This document shows positions 1-6,808 of a DNA stretch of 6,808 nucleotides, piece by piece. The number at the start of each line of letters is the position of its first letter. Position 1 is the stretch's first letter. The stretch spans positions 1 through 6,808 of the IMG/VR virus record IMGVR_UViG_3300045988_051146. One strand, written 5' to 3'. Under the pieces are notes generated by a model. It worked only from the letters and a program-made list of their open reading frames with translations. It did no database searches and had not been told where the DNA came from. Position numbers and translations under genes: made by a program. This DNA is from a virus.

Positions 1-80
1 CGTCCGTCAAAATCCTGCCTTTGTGCAAAACGGAGAAAATGTTGCAAAAACGGGTCAAATAGGCGATATCGTATCTCCAT
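1..80. repeat. Left arm of an 80-bp imperfect inverted repeat (partner 6729..6808)
   Basis: Positions 1..80 equal the reverse complement of 6729..6808 except at 56 (c vs t) and 76 (t vs c). Identity collapses at 81/6728. Positions 1..55 are perfect. The arm contains the sub-repeat TGCAAAA(A)CGG twice and a CGATATCG palindrome. Confidence 0.9.
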
Positions 81-87
81 CACAGAA

Positions 88-192
88 TCACAGAATCTGA
101 GACCAGATAGAATAAATCAGCAGCACCACAAGAGGAAAAACGACACCGAGCAGGAAAAGCACTCCGAGTAGTTTAGCAATTATTTTTAGCAT
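88..192 (-). CDS. 34-aa single-pass hydrophobic peptide (candidate lysis, exclusion or membrane peptide)
   Basis: Hand translation gives MLKIIAKLLGVLFLLGVVFPLVVLLIYSIWSQIL, with stop TGA at 90..88. AAGGAG lies 7 nt upstream of the ATG (192..190). A dedicated promoter sits about 45 nt upstream. The ORF is below the size cut-off of the supplied ORF track. Confidence 0.55.
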   Translation of the reverse strand: MLKIIAKLLGVLFLLGVVFPLVVLLIYSIWSQIL

Positions 193-236
193 TTATATAC
201 TCCTTTTATTTACGATAGTGCATACTTCTATTTATC

Positions 237-265
237 ATTTTAGCTTGTCGGAGTGCATACGTCAA
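237..265 (-). promoter_or_regulatory. Sigma-A/sigma-70-type promoter, TTGACG - 17 nt - TAAAAT, reading toward the 34-aa ORF
   Basis: The minus strand reads aggacTTGACGtatgcactccgacaagcTAAAATgataaa. The -35 is at 265..260, the spacer is 17 nt and the -10 is at 242..237. It is the only near-consensus promoter I can find in the phage module. It lies in the phage module's only sizeable intergenic region. Confidence 0.55.
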
Positions 266-325
266 GTCCTATTTCACTGCTCTAAACTCGCTAGCCGCGC
301 TCACGCTTGGCTGCGCTTGGTGTCA

Positions 326-389
326 CTCAGGCCCATTACATCAAGAGGTGTAATGGGCCTGAGATGCCCCCAAGCCTTTGCTTGGGGGC
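326..389 (-). terminator. Two tandem perfect GC-rich stem-loops just downstream of VP2: putative operon terminator and/or ssDNA complementary-strand origin
   Basis: Hairpin A has 10-bp arms at 366..375 and 380..389 with loop cttt. Hairpin B has 15-bp arms at 326..340 and 349..363 with an 8-nt loop. They begin 8 nt after the VP2 stop. No U-tract follows on the minus strand, so they are not classical intrinsic terminators. Confidence 0.4.
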
Positions 390-397
390 GAAGCTAA

Positions 398-1222
398 TCA
401 GAATTTACCATCATTTTTTAGATGAGTAAATCCACCGGAATTTACTCCGCCAAAAAGCCATCTATACCAATCAGAATTAGTAACGGCTTTTTTGACGTCA
501 CCGGAAGCAGACGAAAGCCAAGAAGAAATGGAATCAAAGAGAGACTTGCCGGAGGAACCAAGACCGGCAGAACCTTCATCACCGGAAACCATTTTCAAAA
601 GCTCACGAGCGAATCCCCAAGGACCGTTGGGATTCGCTATGTTCTGATCCGTTGCGTACTTACTCGCAGCATACGACATATTGGCGCCATACTTAGAAGC
701 ATCGGCGCCGATCTGAGCAACGAGCTTCTCCATAGCAGTGTACTTATCGGCAACTGCTTCCTGTGTACGTGCATTGACGTTTGCAGTTTGCAACTGGGTT
801 TGAGCAGAAAGCACCGATCCAAGCATTTGCACAAGAGCAGCATTAGCAGAGGTATCAACCTCACCTTTAGCACCAGCAGAGGTCACGCCGGAAGCGGTAG
901 CACCGGAGGTAACGGCAGCGCCGTTACCTCCCATAGCACTTAGAACCGGATTCAAACCGGCTGCCTTAAGATCACGAATCTCACGCTGGTGAGCAGTATT
1001 GCTCATGTATTCCTGCCAAGAACGGCTTTTAGCGGCCTCCTGAGCGTTAAATTGCATAACCAAGGCATTTTGACGCTCCTGCCAATCACGTTGCTCAGCG
1101 GCCAACTGTGCGCTCCTGGCGGTGTTTTCTGAAGCAGTCCGAGTGATACGAGAAAGAGCAGAATCCAAATTTCCAACAGCCGGCACACTCTGAACCTGAG
1201 CAGCATCCTTACCAGTAGTCAT
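398..1222 (-). CDS. Microviridae VP2-type minor capsid / DNA pilot protein
   Basis: The ORF encodes 274 aa. The block WQEYMSNTAHQREIRDLKAAGLNPVLSA is the conserved signature of gokushovirus VP2 proteins, and the rest is Gly/Ser/Ala-rich. GAGGTGA lies 4 nt upstream of the ATG. The gene sits directly after VP1. Confidence 0.85.
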   Translation of the reverse strand: MTTGKDAAQVQSVPAVGNLDSALSRITRTASENTARSAQLAAEQRDWQERQNALVMQFNAQEAAKSRSWQEYMSNTAHQREIRDLKAAGLNPVLSAMGGNGAAVTSGATASGVTSAGAKGEVDTSANAALVQMLGSVLSAQTQLQTANVNARTQEAVADKYTAMEKLVAQIGADASKYGANMSYAASKYATDQNIANPNGPWGFARELLKMVSGDEGSAGLGSSGKSLFDSISSWLSSASGDVKKAVTNSDWYRWLFGGVNSGGFTHLKNDGKF

Positions 1223-1233
1223 AAAATCACCTC

Positions 1234-2934
1234 TCAGTGATGGTCAATCAGACCAGGGATAGAGTACATCGGCATAGGACGTGTAGTACGGTTCTTGATA
1301 TAGATATCGGCAAAAAGCTGATTGCTGACGCTGGAAGTAACAGCAAGCACACGATCAACGTTTGTCTTATCCTCACGAATCCAAGAATCAGAGAGCATAG
1401 GCAGCGCGGAATAATCATCTGCAAGATGCCAAACGTCAAGAGACTGCGCGTACTGGGAACGCATCTCACCAGTTACACGAGAAGGCTTATAGCGATAATC
1501 AGCCCACGCTTCCTGATAGCCGAAAACCTGGTCATCAACGACAGCACCGGCAGAATCCTTAACGCCAGGGCCCTGCGCATAAATCTCCTTGTTTTTCACA
1601 GCCTGTTCGCCGATATTGGCGAAAACAGGCCAATAGTAGTCAAAGCGATCCTTACGAGACCAAAAACGTTCAAGACCCTGCTGATAAGTGTGATCATAAC
1701 GAGCGACCATAACGCCGATGACAAAACCATGCTCCGTGAAAGACTTGGTGAAATCGGAATGCGTATCGGTAGTGACAGACATACCAGTCACAGTACCTTG
1801 TGCAGTCTCGCCGGAGGCCGTAGCAGACTGCTGCACAACCTGATTGATATTAATGGGGACACGGTTGCCACCGAGATACTCGGGACGCTGAAGGCGGGCA
1901 TCCGGAGAAGTCACGCCAAAATGAGACTTGAGAATTTCGATATAGCGAGAACCGCCACGGGCATCTTTCTCATAAAGCTTCTGAATCTGGAACGCCATAC
2001 GAAGCTGATTGATCGAAGCACCGAGACCACCGGAAGAAACAGCATAAAGGTTAACAGGATCAAAACCGGGTTTTTCAGCAGAACCACCATAGCCAGTGAG
2101 ACCAGCATAATTGGAACCGGCAACAACAGGTGAAAAAGCCAGAGAATCATAAATATTAACCGGCCGATTACCAGCAGCAGGAAAAGAAACATTCGAAACA
2201 CCAGTCAAAACATATCCACCAGGATCATGAGGTTGCTCACGGGTAACAACAGGATATTCACCGGACGTAGCCGAGGGAATCAAAACATCCGGACCTTTCT
2301 GAGGGGACGGAAGACAACTCGTGAAATAATCATGATACTTGGCAGCCTTATAAGGAAGACCACCTTTCGCAACATCAGTAACAAACGTACCAGTATTGAC
2401 GCCGGCTACAGTAGCATCATCGACGGGAACAACGAGCGGGTCAGATAGATTTTCATCACGAAACCACTCATTCATCACCAGGGCATAAGCTCGGAAGGGA
2501 AGAGCACTAACGGAAAGATTAGGAACGCCAGTAGGGACACCGAAATAATCGGCAATAGTTCCAACAGACCATCCGCTATCAGCAGGAGCAGTAATCTGAG
2601 GAATTTCATACTCTGTCTGAGGAATCCAGGCAGATTCCGTATTCTCGCCGTTGAACTGCTTCCAATGAGACCAAGTAAGGCGGTTCGGTACGAAGAAGAA
2701 ATACGTGTCAAGGTAGATGTTGTCCATGACCGGAGTAAGCAGCGTCTGCAAACGCACAACCTTGGATGTGTCCACGTTGAACGTATCTCCCGGTAGTACT
2801 TCGTCAAGGAAAAAAGGAACAATGTCACCAACATTAAACGAAGTCTTAAGAGAATGCGAGCGGTCAAACGTCGAACGCCGGATATCAATGTTCGTGGGAT
2901 TAAGTGCGAAATGAGATTCAACATTGCGGTTCAT
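1234..2934 (-). CDS. Microviridae major capsid protein VP1 (F-like jelly-roll)
   Basis: The ORF encodes 566 aa. The N-terminal block RRSTFDRSHSLKTSFNVGDIVPFFLDEVLPGDTF is a hallmark of microvirus F/VP1 proteins, and the length is typical of gokushovirus-type VP1. The ATG overlaps the VP3 stop (ATGA). AAGGAGG lies 7 nt upstream. Confidence 0.95.
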   Translation of the reverse strand: MNRNVESHFALNPTNIDIRRSTFDRSHSLKTSFNVGDIVPFFLDEVLPGDTFNVDTSKVVRLQTLLTPVMDNIYLDTYFFFVPNRLTWSHWKQFNGENTESAWIPQTEYEIPQITAPADSGWSVGTIADYFGVPTGVPNLSVSALPFRAYALVMNEWFRDENLSDPLVVPVDDATVAGVNTGTFVTDVAKGGLPYKAAKYHDYFTSCLPSPQKGPDVLIPSATSGEYPVVTREQPHDPGGYVLTGVSNVSFPAAGNRPVNIYDSLAFSPVVAGSNYAGLTGYGGSAEKPGFDPVNLYAVSSGGLGASINQLRMAFQIQKLYEKDARGGSRYIEILKSHFGVTSPDARLQRPEYLGGNRVPININQVVQQSATASGETAQGTVTGMSVTTDTHSDFTKSFTEHGFVIGVMVARYDHTYQQGLERFWSRKDRFDYYWPVFANIGEQAVKNKEIYAQGPGVKDSAGAVVDDQVFGYQEAWADYRYKPSRVTGEMRSQYAQSLDVWHLADDYSALPMLSDSWIREDKTNVDRVLAVTSSVSNQLFADIYIKNRTTRPMPMYSIPGLIDHH

Positions 2935-3434
2935 TCCATAACCTCCTTTTTCGGCTCAACAGCCGGTTTTTCCTCCTGTGCGGGCGGGTCAGACTCTCGC
3001 TCGGGCTTAATTCCGAGCTTGTCGAGGAAATCAGGCTTGTCCATGCCGGCCATGAACTCCGCAAAGTTGTGGTTAAACTTTGCGCGAATATCGACCGGAA
3101 GAGAATTGAAAAAGCTCTGACCTTCATTGACCTTGTTCAAAAGGTCAGCATAGGTTGTAGGCATATTGGTGAAATCACCATAAGCGCCCTGGACACGCGA
3201 AAGCGCGTCAATGTCGCCGTTCTGATATCGAGCGAGAATCACGTGGATATCGACGGACTCGGCGTGCGATTGAATGAAATCGTAAAGGTCTTCTCGGCCA
3301 GACTCAACGAGATCCATAACTCCATTTTCATCAAACTTAGGCTGATAGAGAATCCGTTCGCGCTCACCAAGATTTGAAGGGAAACGAGTTCTCGGACGAT
3401 ACTGAGTAGCGAATCTAAGCTTTTCATCATACAT
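2931..3434 (-). CDS. Microviridae internal scaffolding protein VP3
   Basis: The ORF encodes 167 aa. The pattern YDFIQSHAESVDIHVILARYQNGDIDAL ... YGDFTNMP ... FNSLPVDIRAKFNHNFAEF matches the gokushovirus/Chlamydia-phage VP3 scaffold family. It has an acidic/Pro-rich C-terminal tail. It lies immediately upstream of VP1 and is translationally coupled to it. Confidence 0.8.
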   Translation of the reverse strand: MYDEKLRFATQYRPRTRFPSNLGERERILYQPKFDENGVMDLVESGREDLYDFIQSHAESVDIHVILARYQNGDIDALSRVQGAYGDFTNMPTTYADLLNKVNEGQSFFNSLPVDIRAKFNHNFAEFMAGMDKPDFLDKLGIKPERESDPPAQEEKPAVEPKKEVME

Positions 3435-3436
3435 GA

Positions 3437-3688
3437 TTACACATCCTTTCTCTGGATGGACGTACCATCCAAAATCACCTCGGGGAGCTGGGTGGAGATC
3501 GTGCCAGTCTCGTTATCAAACTCGCCGATCTTACAAAGAGCATAATCCTCAATGTGAGAAAACAGAAGACTCTCCTTCTGCATACAGGCATGAGCGAAAT
3601 TCCGCATAGCGGAAGAATCATTCTGGTCTACCGTAGGCGGGAGAAAGCCCGTACGAGCATCACGAATAGAGAAAACACCGTATTTCAT
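3437..3688 (-). CDS. Conserved small microvirus nonstructural protein (VP5/ORF5-like)
   Basis: The ORF encodes 83 aa. The pattern MKYGVFSIRDARTGFLPPT ... NDSSAMRNF ... EDYALCKIGEFDNETG resembles the roughly 80-90-aa protein widely conserved next to VP3/VP4 in gokushovirus-type genomes. Its stop lies 2 nt before the VP3 ATG. The function assignment is by recollection only. Confidence 0.6.
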   Translation of the reverse strand: MKYGVFSIRDARTGFLPPTVDQNDSSAMRNFAHACMQKESLLFSHIEDYALCKIGEFDNETGTISTQLPEVILDGTSIQRKDV

Positions 3689-3843
3689 TTCCTAAAAACC
3701 CTTTCAATTGAATTCATAAGTTGAAGAACATCGGGAACGCCCGAAAAATCCGAAGGATTGACACGAGAAGCCTCAATCAAAAAAGACTTCATCTCACGCC
3801 AACAGCGCATATAAAACATAGGATCATCATCAGAATATTTCAC
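3685..3843 (-). CDS. Small translationally coupled ORF (52 aa from GTG 3843, or 44 aa from ATG 3819), unknown function
   Basis: Hand translation gives (VKYSDDDP)MFYMRCWREMKSFLIEASRVNPSDFSGVPDVLQLMNSIERVFRK. Its stop overlaps the VP5-like ATG (ATGA). The GTG overlaps the stop of the J-like gene (GTGA) and has AGGAGG 9 nt upstream. It fills an otherwise empty gap in a tightly packed operon. Confidence 0.4.
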   Translation of the reverse strand: MKYSDDDPMFYMRCWREMKSFLIEASRVNPSDFSGVPDVLQLMNSIERVFRK

Positions 3844-3953
3844 AGTCGAATACCTCCTCTAAAAACAGTCGGGTTAATGTTGATCTTCTTGGACTTCGCA
3901 GCAGTACGACGAAAGACCTTCTTGTCTTTCTTGGGACGCATTTTCTTACGCAT
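3840..3953 (-). CDS. Small highly basic DNA-binding/packaging peptide (J / ORF8-like)
   Basis: Hand translation gives MRKKMRPKKDKKVFRRTAAKSKKININPTVFRGGIRL (37 aa). It is Lys/Arg-rich with the C-terminal RGGIRL ending typical of gokushovirus small basic proteins. The ATG overlaps the Rep stop (TAATG). AAAGGAG lies 9 nt upstream. Confidence 0.7.
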   Translation of the reverse strand: MRKKMRPKKDKKVFRRTAAKSKKININPTVFRGGIRL

Positions 3954-4966
3954 TAGATACAACTCCTTTTCAATGATTTTATTCGGGCCAGCTGGTTCCG
4001 TTCTTCAACGGCAAGCTGGTCTAAATAACTAAGTGTGGTTTTCTGTAATTTCGCTTTCTGAGCTTCAGCTGCCATCTTCTGACGAACAGCTTTAAGCCTG
4101 GCAGATTCTTCCGGACAATCGAGATCAAAGAGCTTGTCATAATACTTCGGAGGTCGAAACTTCCTTCCGCCTTTCTCAGTCGAAATGTTAATGAACTCGT
4201 GTTCATATAGGTCGGGATGATCCTCGTAATACTGCCGGGCAATACCGGGCTTGCGAGACATAAGCGAAAACTCAGGAACAATGTTGAAATTCTCGTAGAA
4301 CTCAGCTTCAGGGCCGGTGAGCTTCTTCATGACATAACGAGCAGTATAAGCGCAAGTCTCCCAGGTCACAGGAGCTACAACAGCAAAACCATTCGGCCAA
4401 ACTTCTTGAAGGGACGCAGAATTGAAGTATTGAAAACCTTGAGCAGATCGCTTGTAAGGAACAAGGTCATGGAGTTCCAATCCAAAAATGATTGCATGAT
4501 AATGAGGGCGGAACGTCTGAGAACCATACTCACCAGAAGCAAAGAAGCGAATACCTTCGCCGAACTTCTTCCGGAGACGCTTCATAAAAAGCTGAAAATC
4601 ACGCTTCACGAGGGACATACTCGGCAGGGCCTCGCCGGTCTCCGGATCGGAATAGTAATGAATAGGAACGTGAGCATCATCATAAGTAAGCGTTACGAAG
4701 TAGCTGGACTTATGATATTCAAGCTCCAACATACAACGGTTAGCCCATTCACGGGAACGCTGGAGACGACAGCCGGAACACTTACCACAAGGAATCTCAA
4801 TAAACTCCGTAACGTCACCAGGACGACCAATAGGCGGACTTCGCATACACGCAAAGCCTTCACCAGCGCGCTCGAGATGGTCTACCTCATAGCTCGTTAC
4901 CTTGAGCAACCGTTTACCATCTTTTTCGCCTAAAACAAAGGCTTTCAGCGGATGATAACAGGGCAA
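3953..4966 (-). CDS. Microviridae replication initiator VP4 (HUH rolling-circle endonuclease, gpA-like)
   Basis: This is the frame of track ORF 3953..5200. Motifs are FVTLTYDD (motif 1), RPHYHAIIFG (HUH), YTARYVMKK (two-Tyr motif as in phiX174 gpA) and a CGKCSGC Cys cluster. The first roughly 64-78 codons of the 415-aa ORF are Arg/Pro-rich read-through of GC-rich iteron DNA. I place the start at TTG 4966..4964, with GAAGGTGAT 3 nt upstream, giving MPCYHPLKAF. The alternative is ATG 5008..5006, which has no SD and lies inside a hairpin. Confidence 0.9.
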   Translation of the reverse strand: MPCYHPLKAFVLGEKDGKRLLKVTSYEVDHLERAGEGFACMRSPPIGRPGDVTEFIEIPCGKCSGCRLQRSREWANRCMLELEYHKSSYFVTLTYDDAHVPIHYYSDPETGEALPSMSLVKRDFQLFMKRLRKKFGEGIRFFASGEYGSQTFRPHYHAIIFGLELHDLVPYKRSAQGFQYFNSASLQEVWPNGFAVVAPVTWETCAYTARYVMKKLTGPEAEFYENFNIVPEFSLMSRKPGIARQYYEDHPDLYEHEFINISTEKGGRKFRPPKYYDKLFDLDCPEESARLKAVRQKMAAEAQKAKLQKTTLSYLDQLAVEERNQLARIKSLKRSCI

Positions 4967-4980
4967 GAAATCACCTTCTT

Positions 4981-5007
4981 TGTATGGGGATATCGTACCC
5001 CCATACA
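4981..5007. repeat. 9-bp-stem hairpin containing the third copy of the 19-bp core, at the phage/GC-rich junction
   Basis: The arms are tgtatgggg (4981..4989) and ccccataca (4999..5007), with a 9-nt loop atatcgtac. The minus strand at 5004..4986, ATGGGGGTACGATATCCCC, matches 6729..6747 at 17/19 positions and 80..62 at 16/19. Confidence 0.75.
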
Positions 5008-5041
5008 TTTTGGGAAATTTCAAAAATTTTCGCAGCAATGG

Positions 5042-5160
5042 CAGGCGTTTCGGGGATCGGCGCGAAAAAATGGGTAGACGAAAGGGTAGACGGCGGCCTC
5101 TCCGGAAAACCCGCAAACCCTTGCGCCCCAGGCGTTTCGGCGGGTAGACATCGGGTAGAC
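5042..5160 (+). repeat. Iteron cluster: two pairs of direct GGGTAGAC repeats, each pair preceded by CAGGCGTTTCGG (a fifth copy lies at 5287..5294)
   Basis: GGGTAGAC occurs at 5072..5079, 5084..5091, 5142..5149, 5153..5160 and 5287..5294, all in the same orientation. Spacing within pairs is 12 and 11 bp. The 12-mer CAGGCGTTTCGG occurs at 5042..5053 and 5129..5140. Confidence 0.85.
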
Positions 5161-5212
5161 ATGGACGGTTTTGGGGCAGGCTGCCCGTCAAATGCAACAA
5201 AATCCGACGCTT

Positions 5213-5239
5213 TTAGCACTCTTAGAGCGAGAGTGCTAA
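5213..5239. promoter_or_regulatory. CIRCE element (HrcA operator), perfect consensus
   Basis: The sequence is TTAGCACTC (5213..5221), then 9 nt (ttagagcga), then GAGTGCTAA (5231..5239). This is an exact match to the canonical TTAGCACTC-N9-GAGTGCTAA inverted repeat. It lies 129 nt upstream of the hsp20 ATG. I could not place the cognate promoter confidently; the weak candidate is TTCACA 5253..5258 / CACAAT 5277..5282. Confidence 0.85.
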
Positions 5240-5367
5240 AATTCATAGTCTGTTCACACAAATGCGTATCTTTGGACACAATTCCGGGGTAGACTCTGAG
5301 TCAAGAAAAGCAAAGGAAGGCAAGCTCCCGAGGCTTTCCAAATCTCGAATTTTCGGAGGTATTCATT

Positions 5368-5808
5368 ATGTTTGAACTGAGACCTTACCGCAACAATAAC
5401 CACATGACCACCTATGACCCGTTCCGCGACATGGAGGCGCTGGAGCGCGCGTTCTTCGGCAACCGCGACTTCCTCGGCGACGTCGGCACGTTCAAGACCG
5501 ACATTCAGGACAAGGGCGACCATTACCTGCTCGAGGCCGATCTGCCCGGCATGAAGAAGGAGGACATTGCCATCGACATCGACGGCGACAACCTGACCAT
5601 CAAGGCCGAGCGCAGGAACGAGCACGAGGAGAAGGACAAGAGCTACGTCCGCTGCGAGCGCAGCTACGGCAGCTACGCGAGGAGCTTCGATATCTCCGGC
5701 ATCAAGGCCGAGGGCATCAAGGCCAGCTACAACGACGGCGTGCTGAGCCTGACGCTGCCGAAGAAGGACGTCGAGGTCTCCGGCAGCCGGAGACTGGCGA
5801 TCGAGTGA
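5368..5808 (+). CDS. hsp20: Small heat-shock protein, Hsp20/alpha-crystallin family (Clostridial Hsp18-like)
   Basis: The ORF encodes 146 aa. The alpha-crystallin domain pattern is DIQDKGDHYLLEADLPGMKKEDIAIDIDGDNLTIKAERR ... YVRCERSYGSYARSFDISGI ... ASYNDGVLSLTLPKK. GGAGGT lies 7 nt upstream of the ATG. The strongly GC3-biased codon usage is unlike the phage genes. Confidence 0.92.
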   Translation: MFELRPYRNNNHMTTYDPFRDMEALERAFFGNRDFLGDVGTFKTDIQDKGDHYLLEADLPGMKKEDIAIDIDGDNLTIKAERRNEHEEKDKSYVRCERSYGSYARSFDISGIKAEGIKASYNDGVLSLTLPKKDVEVSGSRRLAIE

Positions 5809-5812
5809 GATC

Positions 5813-5909
5813 TGCCGCCTGAGGGCGGCACGACATTTGCCGCCTGACGGCGGCGCCACATTTGCCGCTTGACAGCGGCGCCACATTTGCCGCCTGACGG
5901 CGGCACGAC
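5813..5909 (+). repeat. 3.9 tandem copies of a 25-nt unit, each carrying a 6-bp GC hairpin, in the hsp20 3' region
   Basis: Units occupy 5813..5837, 5838..5862, 5863..5887 and 5888..5909 (the last partial). The unit is TGCCGCCTGACGGCGGC(G/A)C(C/G)ACATT. Unit 3 carries a compensatory pair change (GCCGCT...AGCGGC) that preserves the stem. Confidence 0.85.
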
Positions 5910-5948
5910 CAAAGGGGCCATTCTCTACCGTAGAGAATGACCCCTTTG
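5910..5948 (+). terminator. Long stem-loop, putative hsp20 terminator
   Basis: The arms are caaaggggccattctcta (5910..5927) and tagagaatgacccctttg (5931..5948), forming 18 bp with one C/A mismatch and a 3-nt loop. If the stem is taken as GGGGCC.../...GACCCC it is followed by only TTTG, a weak U-tract. Confidence 0.4.
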
Positions 5949-6389
5949 AAACCCCAAGAGAGCGCAAGGGGCTTTTCCACCGTCGCGGCACAGCGATTCC
6001 CGCGCCTCTTCGGGCGCGCCAATCGCGCCGCTTCCTCGAAACCGCCTCGCTTTTTCCGCCACCGGCGGCGCTTCGGCGCTTTCCCCTTGACCCCCGAACT
6101 GCGGCGGTCAAATCACCGTTCAGCAACCGTATGAGAGTGCGGCGGCGCGGCTTTCGATCTGGCCTGCTTCTCTTTCCGCTCAGCCGCTGCTGCGGTGCTG
6201 GTACGAGCTGCTGTTAAAAATTTCTTCCGAAACCCCACCGCAGAGCGGCAGCGGCCGCAAGGAGCAAGCCAAATCGAAAGCGGCAATAAGAAACTGCACG
6301 CACTCCTTTGCGCAGCGCGTGCAGCATCAGCCTTGCAGAGGCGGGCAATGGCAGGTCAAGGGCGCAGCCCTTGCGGTCTTGGGGAATCG

Positions 6390-6426
6390 AAAGGGGGCCA
6401 TTCTTCCGCTAAGAATGGCCCTCTTT
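6390..6426. repeat. Second member of the GGGGCCATTCT...AGAATGGCCC hairpin family (terminator-like)
   Basis: The arms are aaagggggccattctt (6390..6405) and aagaatggccctcttt (6411..6426), forming 16 bp with one G-U pair and loop ccgct. The arm sequence is closely related to the 5910..5948 hairpin. No credible gene ends here on either strand. Confidence 0.35.
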
Positions 6427-6528
6427 CCTTATGTGCCGCGCGCTCTGCGGCGGGGTGAGGGGCACGTTGCCGTTTGCCGTGCAACAAAAGGCCCCTGTGT
6501 GCCCCTCATTTAGAATCACTCGCTGCGG

Positions 6529-6565
6529 TGTAACAAAAATACAGGAATGTTACAGGTGAGTTACA
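6529..6565 (+). promoter_or_regulatory. Operator-like TGTAACA / TGTTACA inverted repeat plus an extra GTTACA, upstream of the 6581 promoter
   Basis: TGTAACA is at 6529..6535 and TGTTACA at 6548..6554, its exact reverse complement with a 12-nt spacer. A further GTTACA at 6560..6565 is 11 bp from the previous copy. The cluster ends 15 nt before the -35. Confidence 0.3.
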
Positions 6566-6580
6566 AATCGGCCAAAGCGG

Positions 6581-6609
6581 TTGACGGGCGGGAAAGCCGG
6601 GTGTAATAT
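6581..6609 (+). promoter_or_regulatory. Sigma-A/sigma-70-type promoter TTGACG - 17 nt - TAATAT, firing outward toward the right inverted repeat
   Basis: The -35 TTGACG is at 6581..6586, the spacer ggcgggaaagccgggtg is 17 nt, and the -10 TAATAT is at 6604..6609. The -35 and spacer length are the same as in the minus-strand promoter at 265..237. Confidence 0.55.
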
Positions 6610-6659
6610 GAGCATGCAATTGATGGTGGGCCAAGGTGAGTTCCCGGTTCAGTTACGGG

Positions 6660-6735
6660 AACGGCATGCCACGGTAAGTGGATCGAGAAACACCCAAAAA
6701 CACCTGATTTTGCAATACAAATCCGCGAATGGGGA
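6660..6735 (+). ncRNA. Candidate cis-regulatory leader; the 3' half resembles the THI-box of a TPP riboswitch (tentative)
   Basis: The region GAGAAACACCC-aaaaa-CACCUGAU-UUUG(caaua)CAAA-uccGCG-aaUGGGGA (6685..6735) parallels E. coli thiM GAGAAAUACCC-guau-CACCUGAU-CUGG(auaau)CCAG-CG-uAGGGAA. A P3-like hairpin CCAC-ggtaa-GTGG lies at 6669..6681. However, the near-invariant CUGAGA reads UCGAGA, and I cannot build convincing P1/P2 helices. Confidence 0.25.
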
Positions 6736-6808
6736 TACGATATCGCCTATTTAACCCGTTTTTGCAACATTTTCTCCGTTTTGCACAAAGGCAGGATTTT
6801 GACGGACG
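6729..6808. repeat. Right arm of the 80-bp imperfect inverted repeat (partner 1..80)
   Basis: It is the reverse complement of 1..80 with mismatches at 6753 and 6733. The inner 19 nt (6729..6747, ATGGGGATACGATATCGCC) are the core that recurs at 5004..4986. Confidence 0.9.

Follow-up and report, generated by a model that had tools for sequence, protein, structure and literature searches.

A microvirus prophage without an integrase beside the hsp20 gene of gut Oscillibacter and its probable site-specific insertion

Identification of the prophage and its chromosomal flanks

The IMG/VR record IMGVR_UViG_3300045988_051146 comprises 6,808 nt (hereafter the window, meaning the whole stretch of DNA analysed), in which microvirus genes are physically linked to a module carrying hsp20, a gene for a small heat-shock protein. 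The window is a lysogen junction contig, that is, a prophage plus its chromosome flanks. Positions 81-4985 derive from a gokushovirus-like microvirus, and positions 1-80 and 4986-6808 from the chromosome of Oscillibacter (Oscillospiraceae). The hsp20 module is almost certainly chromosomal DNA of a human-gut Oscillibacter that flanks the integrated microvirus, and the whole arrangement is very probably explained by a temperate, integrase-less microvirus that was inserted beside host hsp20 by site-specific recombination.

The unoccupied site was found in all ten long host contigs (L001-L010, 50-455 kb), where window positions 1-80 and 4986-5972 abut, overlapping by exactly the 19-nt core repeat described below, with no phage between them. 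A pattern scan of one genome per species located the site in the cultured isolate Oscillibacter sp. MSJ-31, where it is empty (locus L020, 92% identical to window 4986-6456), and in one metagenome-assembled genome labelled Peptococcaceae. The earlier guess of a Clostridia/Oscillospiraceae-type host, made in a sequence-only reading of the window, was correct.

The free form was found as well. The circular attP junction (tttgtatGGGGATATCGTATCCCCATcacag) was present in 23 loci, and nine attP contigs with direct terminal repeats gave circles of 4852-5017 nt without hsp20. The circle-junction contigs L016 and L017 were 99.8-99.9% identical to the window prophage, and near-identical circles were found in other samples. 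Circular relatives in GenBank, from human, pig and chimpanzee samples, were 87-90% identical; OP549876.1 is a 5050-nt circular record with a perfect attP, and none of the GenBank phage records carried the hsp20 module. The two prophage ends, attL and attR, are reciprocal hybrids of the empty and the circular site. As the host sites are empty and the free circles lack hsp20, the sequence-only reading was right to prefer the host flank of a microvirus prophage, and its two other proposals, a captured stress cassette and a chimeric assembly, are refuted.

If the microvirus had captured hsp20 as an auxiliary gene, it would package a 6.7-kb genome or, in a variant of this idea, possess a complete linear genome with inverted terminal repeats. 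The physical linkage in the window and the 80-nt inverted repeat at its ends would suit such a genome, but the closed circles of 4.85-5.0 kb leave hsp20 out, long host contigs hold hsp20 and its flanks without phage, and the same phage lies beside other host genes, which makes the capture vanishingly improbable. A chimera, with a free microvirus and a host fragment joined through their shared 19-mer, is extremely improbable too: a de Bruijn assembler with small k might conceivably be misled by the 19-nt core, but the hsp20 site by itself yielded identical junctions in at least 11 contigs that had been assembled independently, and the junctions recurred across assemblers (k141, NODE-type and Logan contigs). 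Contigs L011, L012, L028, L054 and L138 contain the prophage in full, flanked left and right by host DNA, and most of the 23 attL and 30 attR copies have reciprocal arms, attL with the phage base in its right arm and attR with the host base.

The 19-nt core repeat has three copies in the window, at 62-80 (plus strand), 4986-5004 (plus) and 6729-6747 (minus), whereas shuffled sequences gave 0.00. The unit bounded by the direct copies measures 4924 nt, in line with the 4.92 kb reported earlier. The two ends of the window are inverted copies of one another over 80 nt and differ only at positions 56 and 76. Full agreement of the outer 55 nt is what an assembler k-mer break within a genuine host repeat would leave. 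In every host contig, hsp20 sits between two divergent genes for S-layer homology (SLH) domain proteins of 900-1200 aa, and the upstream leaders of both genes consist of a conserved stretch, termed X, plus the core, in inverted orientation; the 80-nt repeat corresponds to these two leaders. As they are seen in phage-free host genomes, the repeat is no property of a viral genome, which also speaks against the linear-genome variant. For curation, the window is a warning, being a contig with inverted terminal repeats that can be mistaken for a complete 6.8-kb microvirus with hsp20 as an auxiliary gene.

The GC content was 47.4% in the phage part (81-4985), 57.9% in 5005-6728 and 57-59% in ten host loci of 20 kb each. 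hsp20 reached 60.8% with a third-position GC fraction (GC3) of 0.91, compared with 0.41-0.54 for the phage genes, and the spacer after hsp20 had 62%. These counts agree with the contrast that the sequence-only reading had noted between the phage module and the right part, although the truly GC-rich stretch is limited to 5368-6520; the outer parts that it had included (5005-5367 and 6521-6808) have 48-50% GC. Its host/phage boundary at 5009 actually lies between 5004 and 5005. While correct on the prophage, it overlooked that the left 61 nt are of host origin, that the window ends are a host inverted repeat, and that the attachment site is multi-copy and distinct from dif.

Anatomy of the attachment site

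To define the classes of attachment site, 117 copies of the core were sorted by their flanking sequences. Ya and Yb denote the two host modules found on the right of the core, and slashes mark the limits of the central 7-mer.

attB (X/Ya): GGCGA/TATCGTA/CCCCCAT, 18 of 22 copies
Second host type (X/Yb): GGCGA/TATCGTA/TCCCCAT, 12 of 14 copies
attP: GGGGA/TATCGTA/TCCCCAT, 20 of 23 copies
attL: GGCGA/TATCGTA/TCCCCAT, 21 of 23 copies
attR: GGGGA/TATCGTA/CCCCCAT, 23 of 30 copies
62-80, plus strand: attL of the window, GGCGA/TATCGTA/TCTCCAT, host left arm and phage right arm, with one private single-nucleotide polymorphism
4986-5004, plus strand: attR of the window, GGGGA/TATCGTA/CCCCCAT, phage left arm and host right arm, the majority sequence
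6729-6747, minus strand: unoccupied host core of X/Yb type, GGCGA/TATCGTA/TCCCCAT, the same in 12 of 14 X/Yb sites

Each prophage end combines one arm of attB with one arm of attP, and attL and attR do so reciprocally. In attP (ATGGGGA/TATCGTA/TCCCCAT), which lies just upstream of the ribosome-binding site of the Rep gene, perfectly palindromic arms surround the asymmetric 7-mer; in the host site the left arm is degenerate. Position 3 of the core tracks the left flank and position 13 the right flank, indicating that the exchange takes place between them. Two alternative left arms narrow this interval: GAGAG/TATCGTA, occupied in L038, L050 and L096 and empty in L104 and L147, and TATCA/TATCGTA, empty in L004 and L007 and occupied in L072. 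Both place the left limit of exchange between positions 5 and 6, leaving the 7 bp TATCGTA as the exchange window. TATCGTA is identical in nearly all attB, attP, attL and attR copies and in the alternative sites, the informative positions being 3, 5 and 13, and the comparison of flanks strongly suggests a crossover within it. Inverted arms around a 7-bp overlap are compatible with the core site of a tyrosine recombinase without proving it, and a serine recombinase is also possible.

The phage occupies at least three chromosomal loci, which share the core and Ya:

hsp20: 11 contigs
Polysaccharide-deacetylase gene: 3 contigs
129-aa/OAD-beta locus: 4 contigs

None of the 30 phage-host right junctions involved a Yb site, though Yb made up 14 of the 36 host sites seen. 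As the contigs are no independent samples, this is only suggestive of avoidance of Yb by the phage. In host DNA the core occurs 3-4 times per 20 kb, ahead of paralogous SLH genes. We rejected dif as the identity of the site, which is multi-copy and reaches 12-14 of 28 identities with the dif sequences of E. coli and B. subtilis, against a shuffle mean of about 13.

Other elements joined at the same site

The commonest alternative left arm is the leader of a Rep_trans gene (PF02486). Full-length Rep_trans homologues were found on 5-6-kb contigs together with a Zot-like ATPase, and one contig, L156, holds a circular inovirus-like genome (1-5953, about 5.9 kb, with a 30-nt terminal repeat) that encodes both Rep_trans and Zot; no recombinase family is on record for its genes. 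The site of this phage, GGGGGGA/TATCGTA/CCCCCAT, lies inside the rep gene, with the core at 3717-3730. In the host contigs L136 (1-1340), L154 (8900-10216) and L159, the Rep_trans gene is split at the core and joined to Ya. The free form came from the protein database, as IMG/VR offered only fragments of the Rep_trans element next to microvirus contigs, and an IMG/VR pattern search for an inovirus attL (X, core and the C-terminal part of rep) returned no match, so that the other prophage end was unseen. In a variant genome, L157, a second core lies in inverted orientation 46 nt ahead of rep, which places the 5ʹ segment of rep between inverted sites; this segment was also found inverted in host copies.

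Genes of conjugative elements were likewise seen at the site. In L104 and L147 (about 2.7 kb to the left of the site) and in L153, they are truncated exactly at TATCGTA and joined to Ya, and the left flanks of L038, L050 and L096 also carry conjugative-type genes cut at the core. The truncated genes include the N-terminal part of a DUF3991/Toprim gene, with MobL and DUF4317 adjoining, and a DUF6017/DUF3801 gene. This looks like recombination at secondary sites, with microviruses integrating later at the hybrid sites.

Rearrangements around the SLH cassettes

Each host carries several SLH cassettes with conserved core-bearing leaders (in L001 at 1930-2009, 9558-9637 and 11182-11261), and the segments between cassettes are permuted or inverted among strains; they contain hsp20, polysaccharide deacetylase-dCMP deaminase-AsnRS, HtpG, OAD-beta, or ADSL-AdSS. 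An SLH cassette encoding 938 aa lies to the left of hsp20 in L001 and to the right in L002 and L004, with the alignment stopping at the last base of the core. A comparison of L010 with L006 shows the hsp20 segment turned around, while the outer flanks on either side keep their orientation. The same TATCGTA sites therefore appear to mark the inversion endpoints around hsp20. The inversion evidence consists of differences between strains, with none within a clone.

Each SLH gene is followed by a convergent, variable ORF (open reading frame) of 135-202 aa that starts with MTKTTNYQL(P/N)(K/Q)W (in L154 at 3950-4558 relative to the site, in L001 at 5945-6553). It had no Pfam match, and its N-terminus presumably resembles those of phage tail-fibre-like proteins.

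Mechanism of integration and its alternatives

The phage enters the chromosome through an oriented, reciprocal exchange of attP with a host site in the leader of an SLH gene; the recombination is site-specific and very probably falls inside TATCGTA. We propose that the catalyst would be a host-encoded conservative recombinase, most likely of the tyrosine type given the 7-bp overlap flanked by inverted arms, in analogy to the use of XerCD and dif but at a different site with several copies. Searches against Pfam and PHROG matched no phage protein to a recombinase family. Catalysis by a host recombinase is, on balance, probable; we propose it because the site has the architecture of tyrosine-recombinase core sites, because the att palindrome is not the best origin candidate, because an unrelated inovirus-like phage uses the same site, and because host XerCD acts in the only experimentally studied microvirus lysogeny (PMC7062461). 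The following features of the left end of the prophage bear on the alternatives and on the consequences of integration.

88-192, minus strand: strongly hydrophobic ORF of 34 aa (MLKIIAKLLGVLFLLGVVFPLVVLLIYSIWSQIL), predicted as a gene in L011-L018 and preceded by a good ribosome-binding site
237-265, minus strand: promoter-like TTGACG-17-TAAAAT, a consensus match only (10 of 12 positions)
315-375, minus strand: long hairpin with loop CCTCTTGA(T), -26.3 kcal/mol, z = -8.6, candidate replication origin

Of 22 relatives whose Rep is 52-63% identical, 16 have the loop motif of the long hairpin, CTCTTGAT or TCTTGAT, ahead of Rep, though carried by other stems, and these relatives lack the att core. 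We take this loop to resemble the phiX174 nick site CTTG/AT. The att palindrome was accordingly rejected as first choice for the replication origin, the conserved loop being carried by a different hairpin.

Integration could instead be carried out by the phage initiator VP4, if it nicked the att hairpin in either single-stranded or replicative DNA and then ligated it to a matching host sequence; the core would in that case be an origin-like nick site. attP, located 20 nt upstream of the Rep start, does fold into a hairpin (-10.4 kcal/mol, z = -4.7), the second phage also has its site in or next to its rep gene, and one junction class shows 1-nt heterogeneity. However, the better origin candidate lies elsewhere, with a loop conserved in relatives without the core; the hybrid arms of attL and attR are cleanly reciprocal and confine the exchange to 7 bp; and truncated genes of integrative and conjugative elements are joined at the same position. 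VP4 and Rep_trans, moreover, belong to unrelated enzyme families and are unlikely to have a common nick specificity, whereas a common host enzyme explains both phages. We consider integration by VP4 unlikely.

Another candidate is the chromosome-dimer resolution system of the host (XerCD or a single Xer) acting at dif. The sharing of one site with an inovirus-like phage is the typical pattern of integrative mobile elements exploiting Xer (IMEX). This microvirus lacks an integrase, as do the enterobacterial gokushoviruses that provide the precedent (PMC7062461). Against this, dif is a single-copy site and the core occurs 3-4 times within 20 kb before SLH paralogues, its similarity to the dif of E. 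coli or B. subtilis is no better than that of shuffles, and its overlap is 7 bp rather than 6. Integration through Xer at dif is therefore quite improbable.

Integration would also have consequences for phage transcription. In the circle, the promoter-like site at 265-237 would read through the 34-aa ORF and attP and then into Rep. Integration would split this unit, leaving the promoter and the 34-aa ORF at the far left and Rep at the far right behind Ya, and the phage promoter would then point into the SLH leader. Replication would be shut off by this separation with no need for a repressor, and the unit would form again on excision. Consensus scans found a sigma-70-like promoter in Yb (6581-6609), but neither Ya nor X showed one on the strand in question. 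Should Ya prove transcriptionally quiet, no repressor would be needed to keep the prophage silent, and this would also explain why none of the Yb sites was seen occupied. For the inovirus-like phage a parallel logic would hold, as its integration splits the rep gene.

Extending these considerations, a host recombinase may act on the TATCGTA sites of SLH leaders and make the hsp20 segment invertible, with the microvirus and the inovirus-like phage having copied the site and gained a repressor-free lysogeny that is possibly coupled to the surface switch; this full scheme falls somewhat short of probable. Its components of coupling to S-layer switching and repressor-free silencing are more tentative still.

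Several points weigh against the proposed route and its extensions. Within 10 kb of hsp20 in the 10 host contigs, no called gene was annotated with a recombinase family, and the genes scanned beside the alternative junctions (MobL, DUF4317, DUF6017/DUF3801 and Rep_trans) included no recombinases. The Rep_trans-leader junctions (L105-L152) show 1-nt heterogeneity at the left edge of the overlap (tatca, tatcaa, tatcac or tatcat before TATCGTA), and one microvirus attR (L038, 851-869) contains an extra GC; both are atypical of conservative recombination. In both phages the site lies beside or inside a rolling-circle rep gene, making a Rep-dependent route possible. The inversions could be explained by homologous recombination across the repeats of about 1.1 kb at the 5ʹ ends of SLH genes, which are 78-93% identical. 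Furthermore, the promoter statements rest on simple consensus scans, and the contigs come from one IMG/VR compendium and hence are no independent samples.

Genome of the microvirus

The gokushovirus-like gene set (Kirchberger Family 3) is complete on the minus strand between 88 and 4966, without external scaffold or spike genes, and the gene list of the phage part contains no further large ORF beyond the following.

398-1222, minus strand: VP2, DNA pilot protein (PHROG pilot-protein families, down to 1e-21)
1234-2934, minus strand: VP1, major capsid protein (Pfam Phage_F, PF02305, 4.3e-165)
2931-3434, minus strand: VP3, internal scaffolding protein (Pfam Chlamy_scaf, 7.7e-40)
3437-3688, minus strand: VP5/ORF5, DNA-binding protein (Pfam Phage_ORF5, 1.3e-22; phrog_1670)
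3685-3962, minus strand: two small ORFs of 52 aa and, basic, 40 aa, the latter matching phrog_10695
3953-4966, minus strand: VP4, replication initiator of 337 aa (Pfam REP_ORF2-G2P, 5e-18; phrog_942, 1e-132)

VP4 starts with TTG at 4966, preceded by the Shine-Dalgarno sequence AGAAGGTGA. The ATG at 5008, which would give a VP4 of 351 aa, is host-derived and present only in the integrated form. The 34-aa ORF had no PHROG match and is a possible membrane or lysis peptide; its region, between the origin-like hairpin and attP, is swapped for unrelated short sequences in sister phages, which differ in the right flank of attP. The exact VP1 was found on short contigs, and IMG/VR holds about 80 relatives. 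The circles of 4852-5017 nt and the 5050-nt GenBank relative agree in size with the small circular genomes, about 4.3-6.3 kb, of this family. Tandem prophage copies, with an attP junction beside attR or attL, were observed in L037 (149-167 and 5124-5142) and L052 (20-38 and 5042-5060). Of two distant relatives, L088 consists of two related microvirus genomes joined head to tail, with 91-96% identity between the copies, and L078 has a GC-rich end.

Host module and SLH leaders

The chromosomal part of the window comprises the following features.

1-61, minus strand: host DNA X, the leader of an SLH gene that runs off the left end; inverted copy of 6748-6808
5005-5173: host module Ya, a conserved block of about 170 nt that adjoins the core at the three or more loci
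5213-5239, plus strand: perfect controlling inverted repeat of chaperone expression (CIRCE; TTAGCACTC-N9-GAGTGCTAA), overlapping a promoter-like site at 5213-5242
5368-5808, plus strand: host hsp20, small heat-shock protein of 146 aa (Pfam HSP20, PF00011, 5.5e-23)
5813-5906, plus strand: 3.8 tandem GC-rich hairpin units of 25 nt (GCCGCCTGACGGCGGC), downstream of hsp20
5910-5948, plus strand: hairpin with a 19-bp stem, after the tandem units
5949-6520: GC-rich, strain-variable host spacer with further hairpins (e.g., 6389-6427), rearranged among strains
6521-6728, plus strand: host module Yb, located upstream of the SLH gene on the right and containing the promoter-like TTGACG-17-TAATAT at 6581-6609
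6748-6808, plus strand: host X, the leader of the SLH gene on the right, a gene cut off by the end of the window

In the host contigs L001-L010, positions 1-61 have their match at 9558-9618, some 114 nt before the SLH gene starts. Ya carries four GGGTAGAC repeats, at 5072, 5084, 5142 and 5153. They form two tight pairs (5072-5160) that are invariant in every Ya copy at three loci (alignment A1), and a fifth copy lies at 5287, near the hsp20 promoter; the repeats may be binding sites for a regulator or for an accessory factor of recombination.

The CIRCE element, the Hsp18-like small heat-shock protein and the strong ribosome-binding site pointed out in the sequence-only reading were recovered as a perfect CIRCE, a Pfam HSP20 domain and a GGAGG 8 nt before the ATG of hsp20. 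With an alpha-crystallin domain and the CIRCE consensus both present, the gene is a small heat-shock gene predicted to be under CIRCE control. In the assembly collection, 6749 indexed blocks contain the identical Hsp20 protein, and the contigs concerned are as long as 455 kb. The copy number of the tandem hairpin units varies among strains, and L001 and others lack window 5835-5884 (about two units).

No supported gene and no Pfam, Rfam or tRNA match was found in the spacer at 5949-6520. The ORFs at 5254-6126 (minus strand) and 6195-6458 (plus strand) were rejected as genes and treated as non-coding, as they have no Pfam match and the region is rearranged among strains. Compared with Rfam at a permissive threshold, the entire window yielded nothing beyond sub-threshold chance matches (CyaR at the att hairpin and mir-3910 at the origin-like hairpin), and neither tRNA nor transfer-messenger RNA was found in the window.

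Comparison with known systems

Small heat-shock genes of Firmicutes are known to be controlled by CIRCE and HrcA. The perfect CIRCE before an Hsp20/alpha-crystallin gene follows the same pattern, and nothing about it is unusual.

Short sites in the leaders of surface-protein genes have known counterparts. In the R64 shufflon, the sfx sites recombined by Rci conserve only the spacer and one arm, as does the core described here, and RecV of Clostridioides difficile is encoded elsewhere in the genome than its site; the same may hold for a recombinase acting in Oscillibacter. We know of no description of a phage that hijacks a surface-protein inversion system. The Vpma/Xer1 system of Mycoplasma agalactiae (PMC5634654) and the CwpV/RecV system of C. 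difficile (PMC2784873) likewise have their short sites in surface-protein gene leaders; in these two systems and in the R64 shufflon, segments between inverted sites occur in both orientations, as they do here among strains.

IMEX elements such as CTXphi and VGJphi are another point of reference. Like them, the unrelated integrase-less phages with single-stranded DNA described here use one host site and occur in tandem copies (L037 and L052), but the site is no dif. IMEX elements are also discussed in PMC7062461. The closest parallel is provided by the Enterogokushovirus prophages of Escherichia (Kirchberger & Ochman 2020, PMC7062461), integrase-less gokushoviruses that integrate via host XerCD at dif, with the phage motif sometimes in the N-terminus of VP4. 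They are likewise gokushovirus-like, 4.3-4.9 kb in size and without an integrase, have a short phage copy of the host site at or inside the 5ʹ end of VP4 and hybrid flanking sites, and exist in circular alongside integrated forms. They differ in using the single-copy 28-bp dif with a 6-bp spacer and in a dependence on XerC and XerD that was shown experimentally, whereas the Oscillibacter phage has a 7-bp overlap, no similarity to dif, a multi-copy site in SLH leaders and a Gram-positive-type Clostridia host.

Temperate microviruses have been described from Enterobacteriaceae (dif/XerCD), Bacteroidetes and Alphaproteobacteria, and prophages in isolates of Erysipelatoclostridium and Mammaliicoccus sciuri were presented as the first reported microviruses of Gram-positive bacteria (Kirchberger et al. 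2022; PMC9239249, PMC9753089). Integrated microviruses of Bacteroidetes were also reported by Krupovic & Forterre (2011, PMC3091885). These Firmicutes and Bacteroidetes prophages, like the present one, lie outside Proteobacteria, and Oscillospiraceae are not among the prophage hosts named in the accessible portions of these sources. For the two Firmicutes prophages, the available text of PMC9239249 gives no attachment sites, whereas attB, attP, attL, attR and several loci are base-resolved here. Our literature search, with incomplete coverage, found no microvirus prophage in Oscillospiraceae and no microvirus attachment site other than dif. Gokushoviruses are among the most abundant viruses of the human gut, and their hosts have mostly come from CRISPR-based prediction, pointing to Clostridiales (PMC10159846).

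The present results tie one gut gokushovirus lineage to Oscillibacter at base resolution and as a temperate phage, and they imply that microvirus lysogeny is not restricted to XerCD and dif. With a 21-bp site that is present at several loci and shared with an inovirus-like phage, the enzyme can be sought experimentally. Compared with the known systems, the prophage is ordinary in kind; what is new is the attachment site, together with its presence in several copies, its use by an inovirus-like phage as well and its connection to SLH rearrangement.

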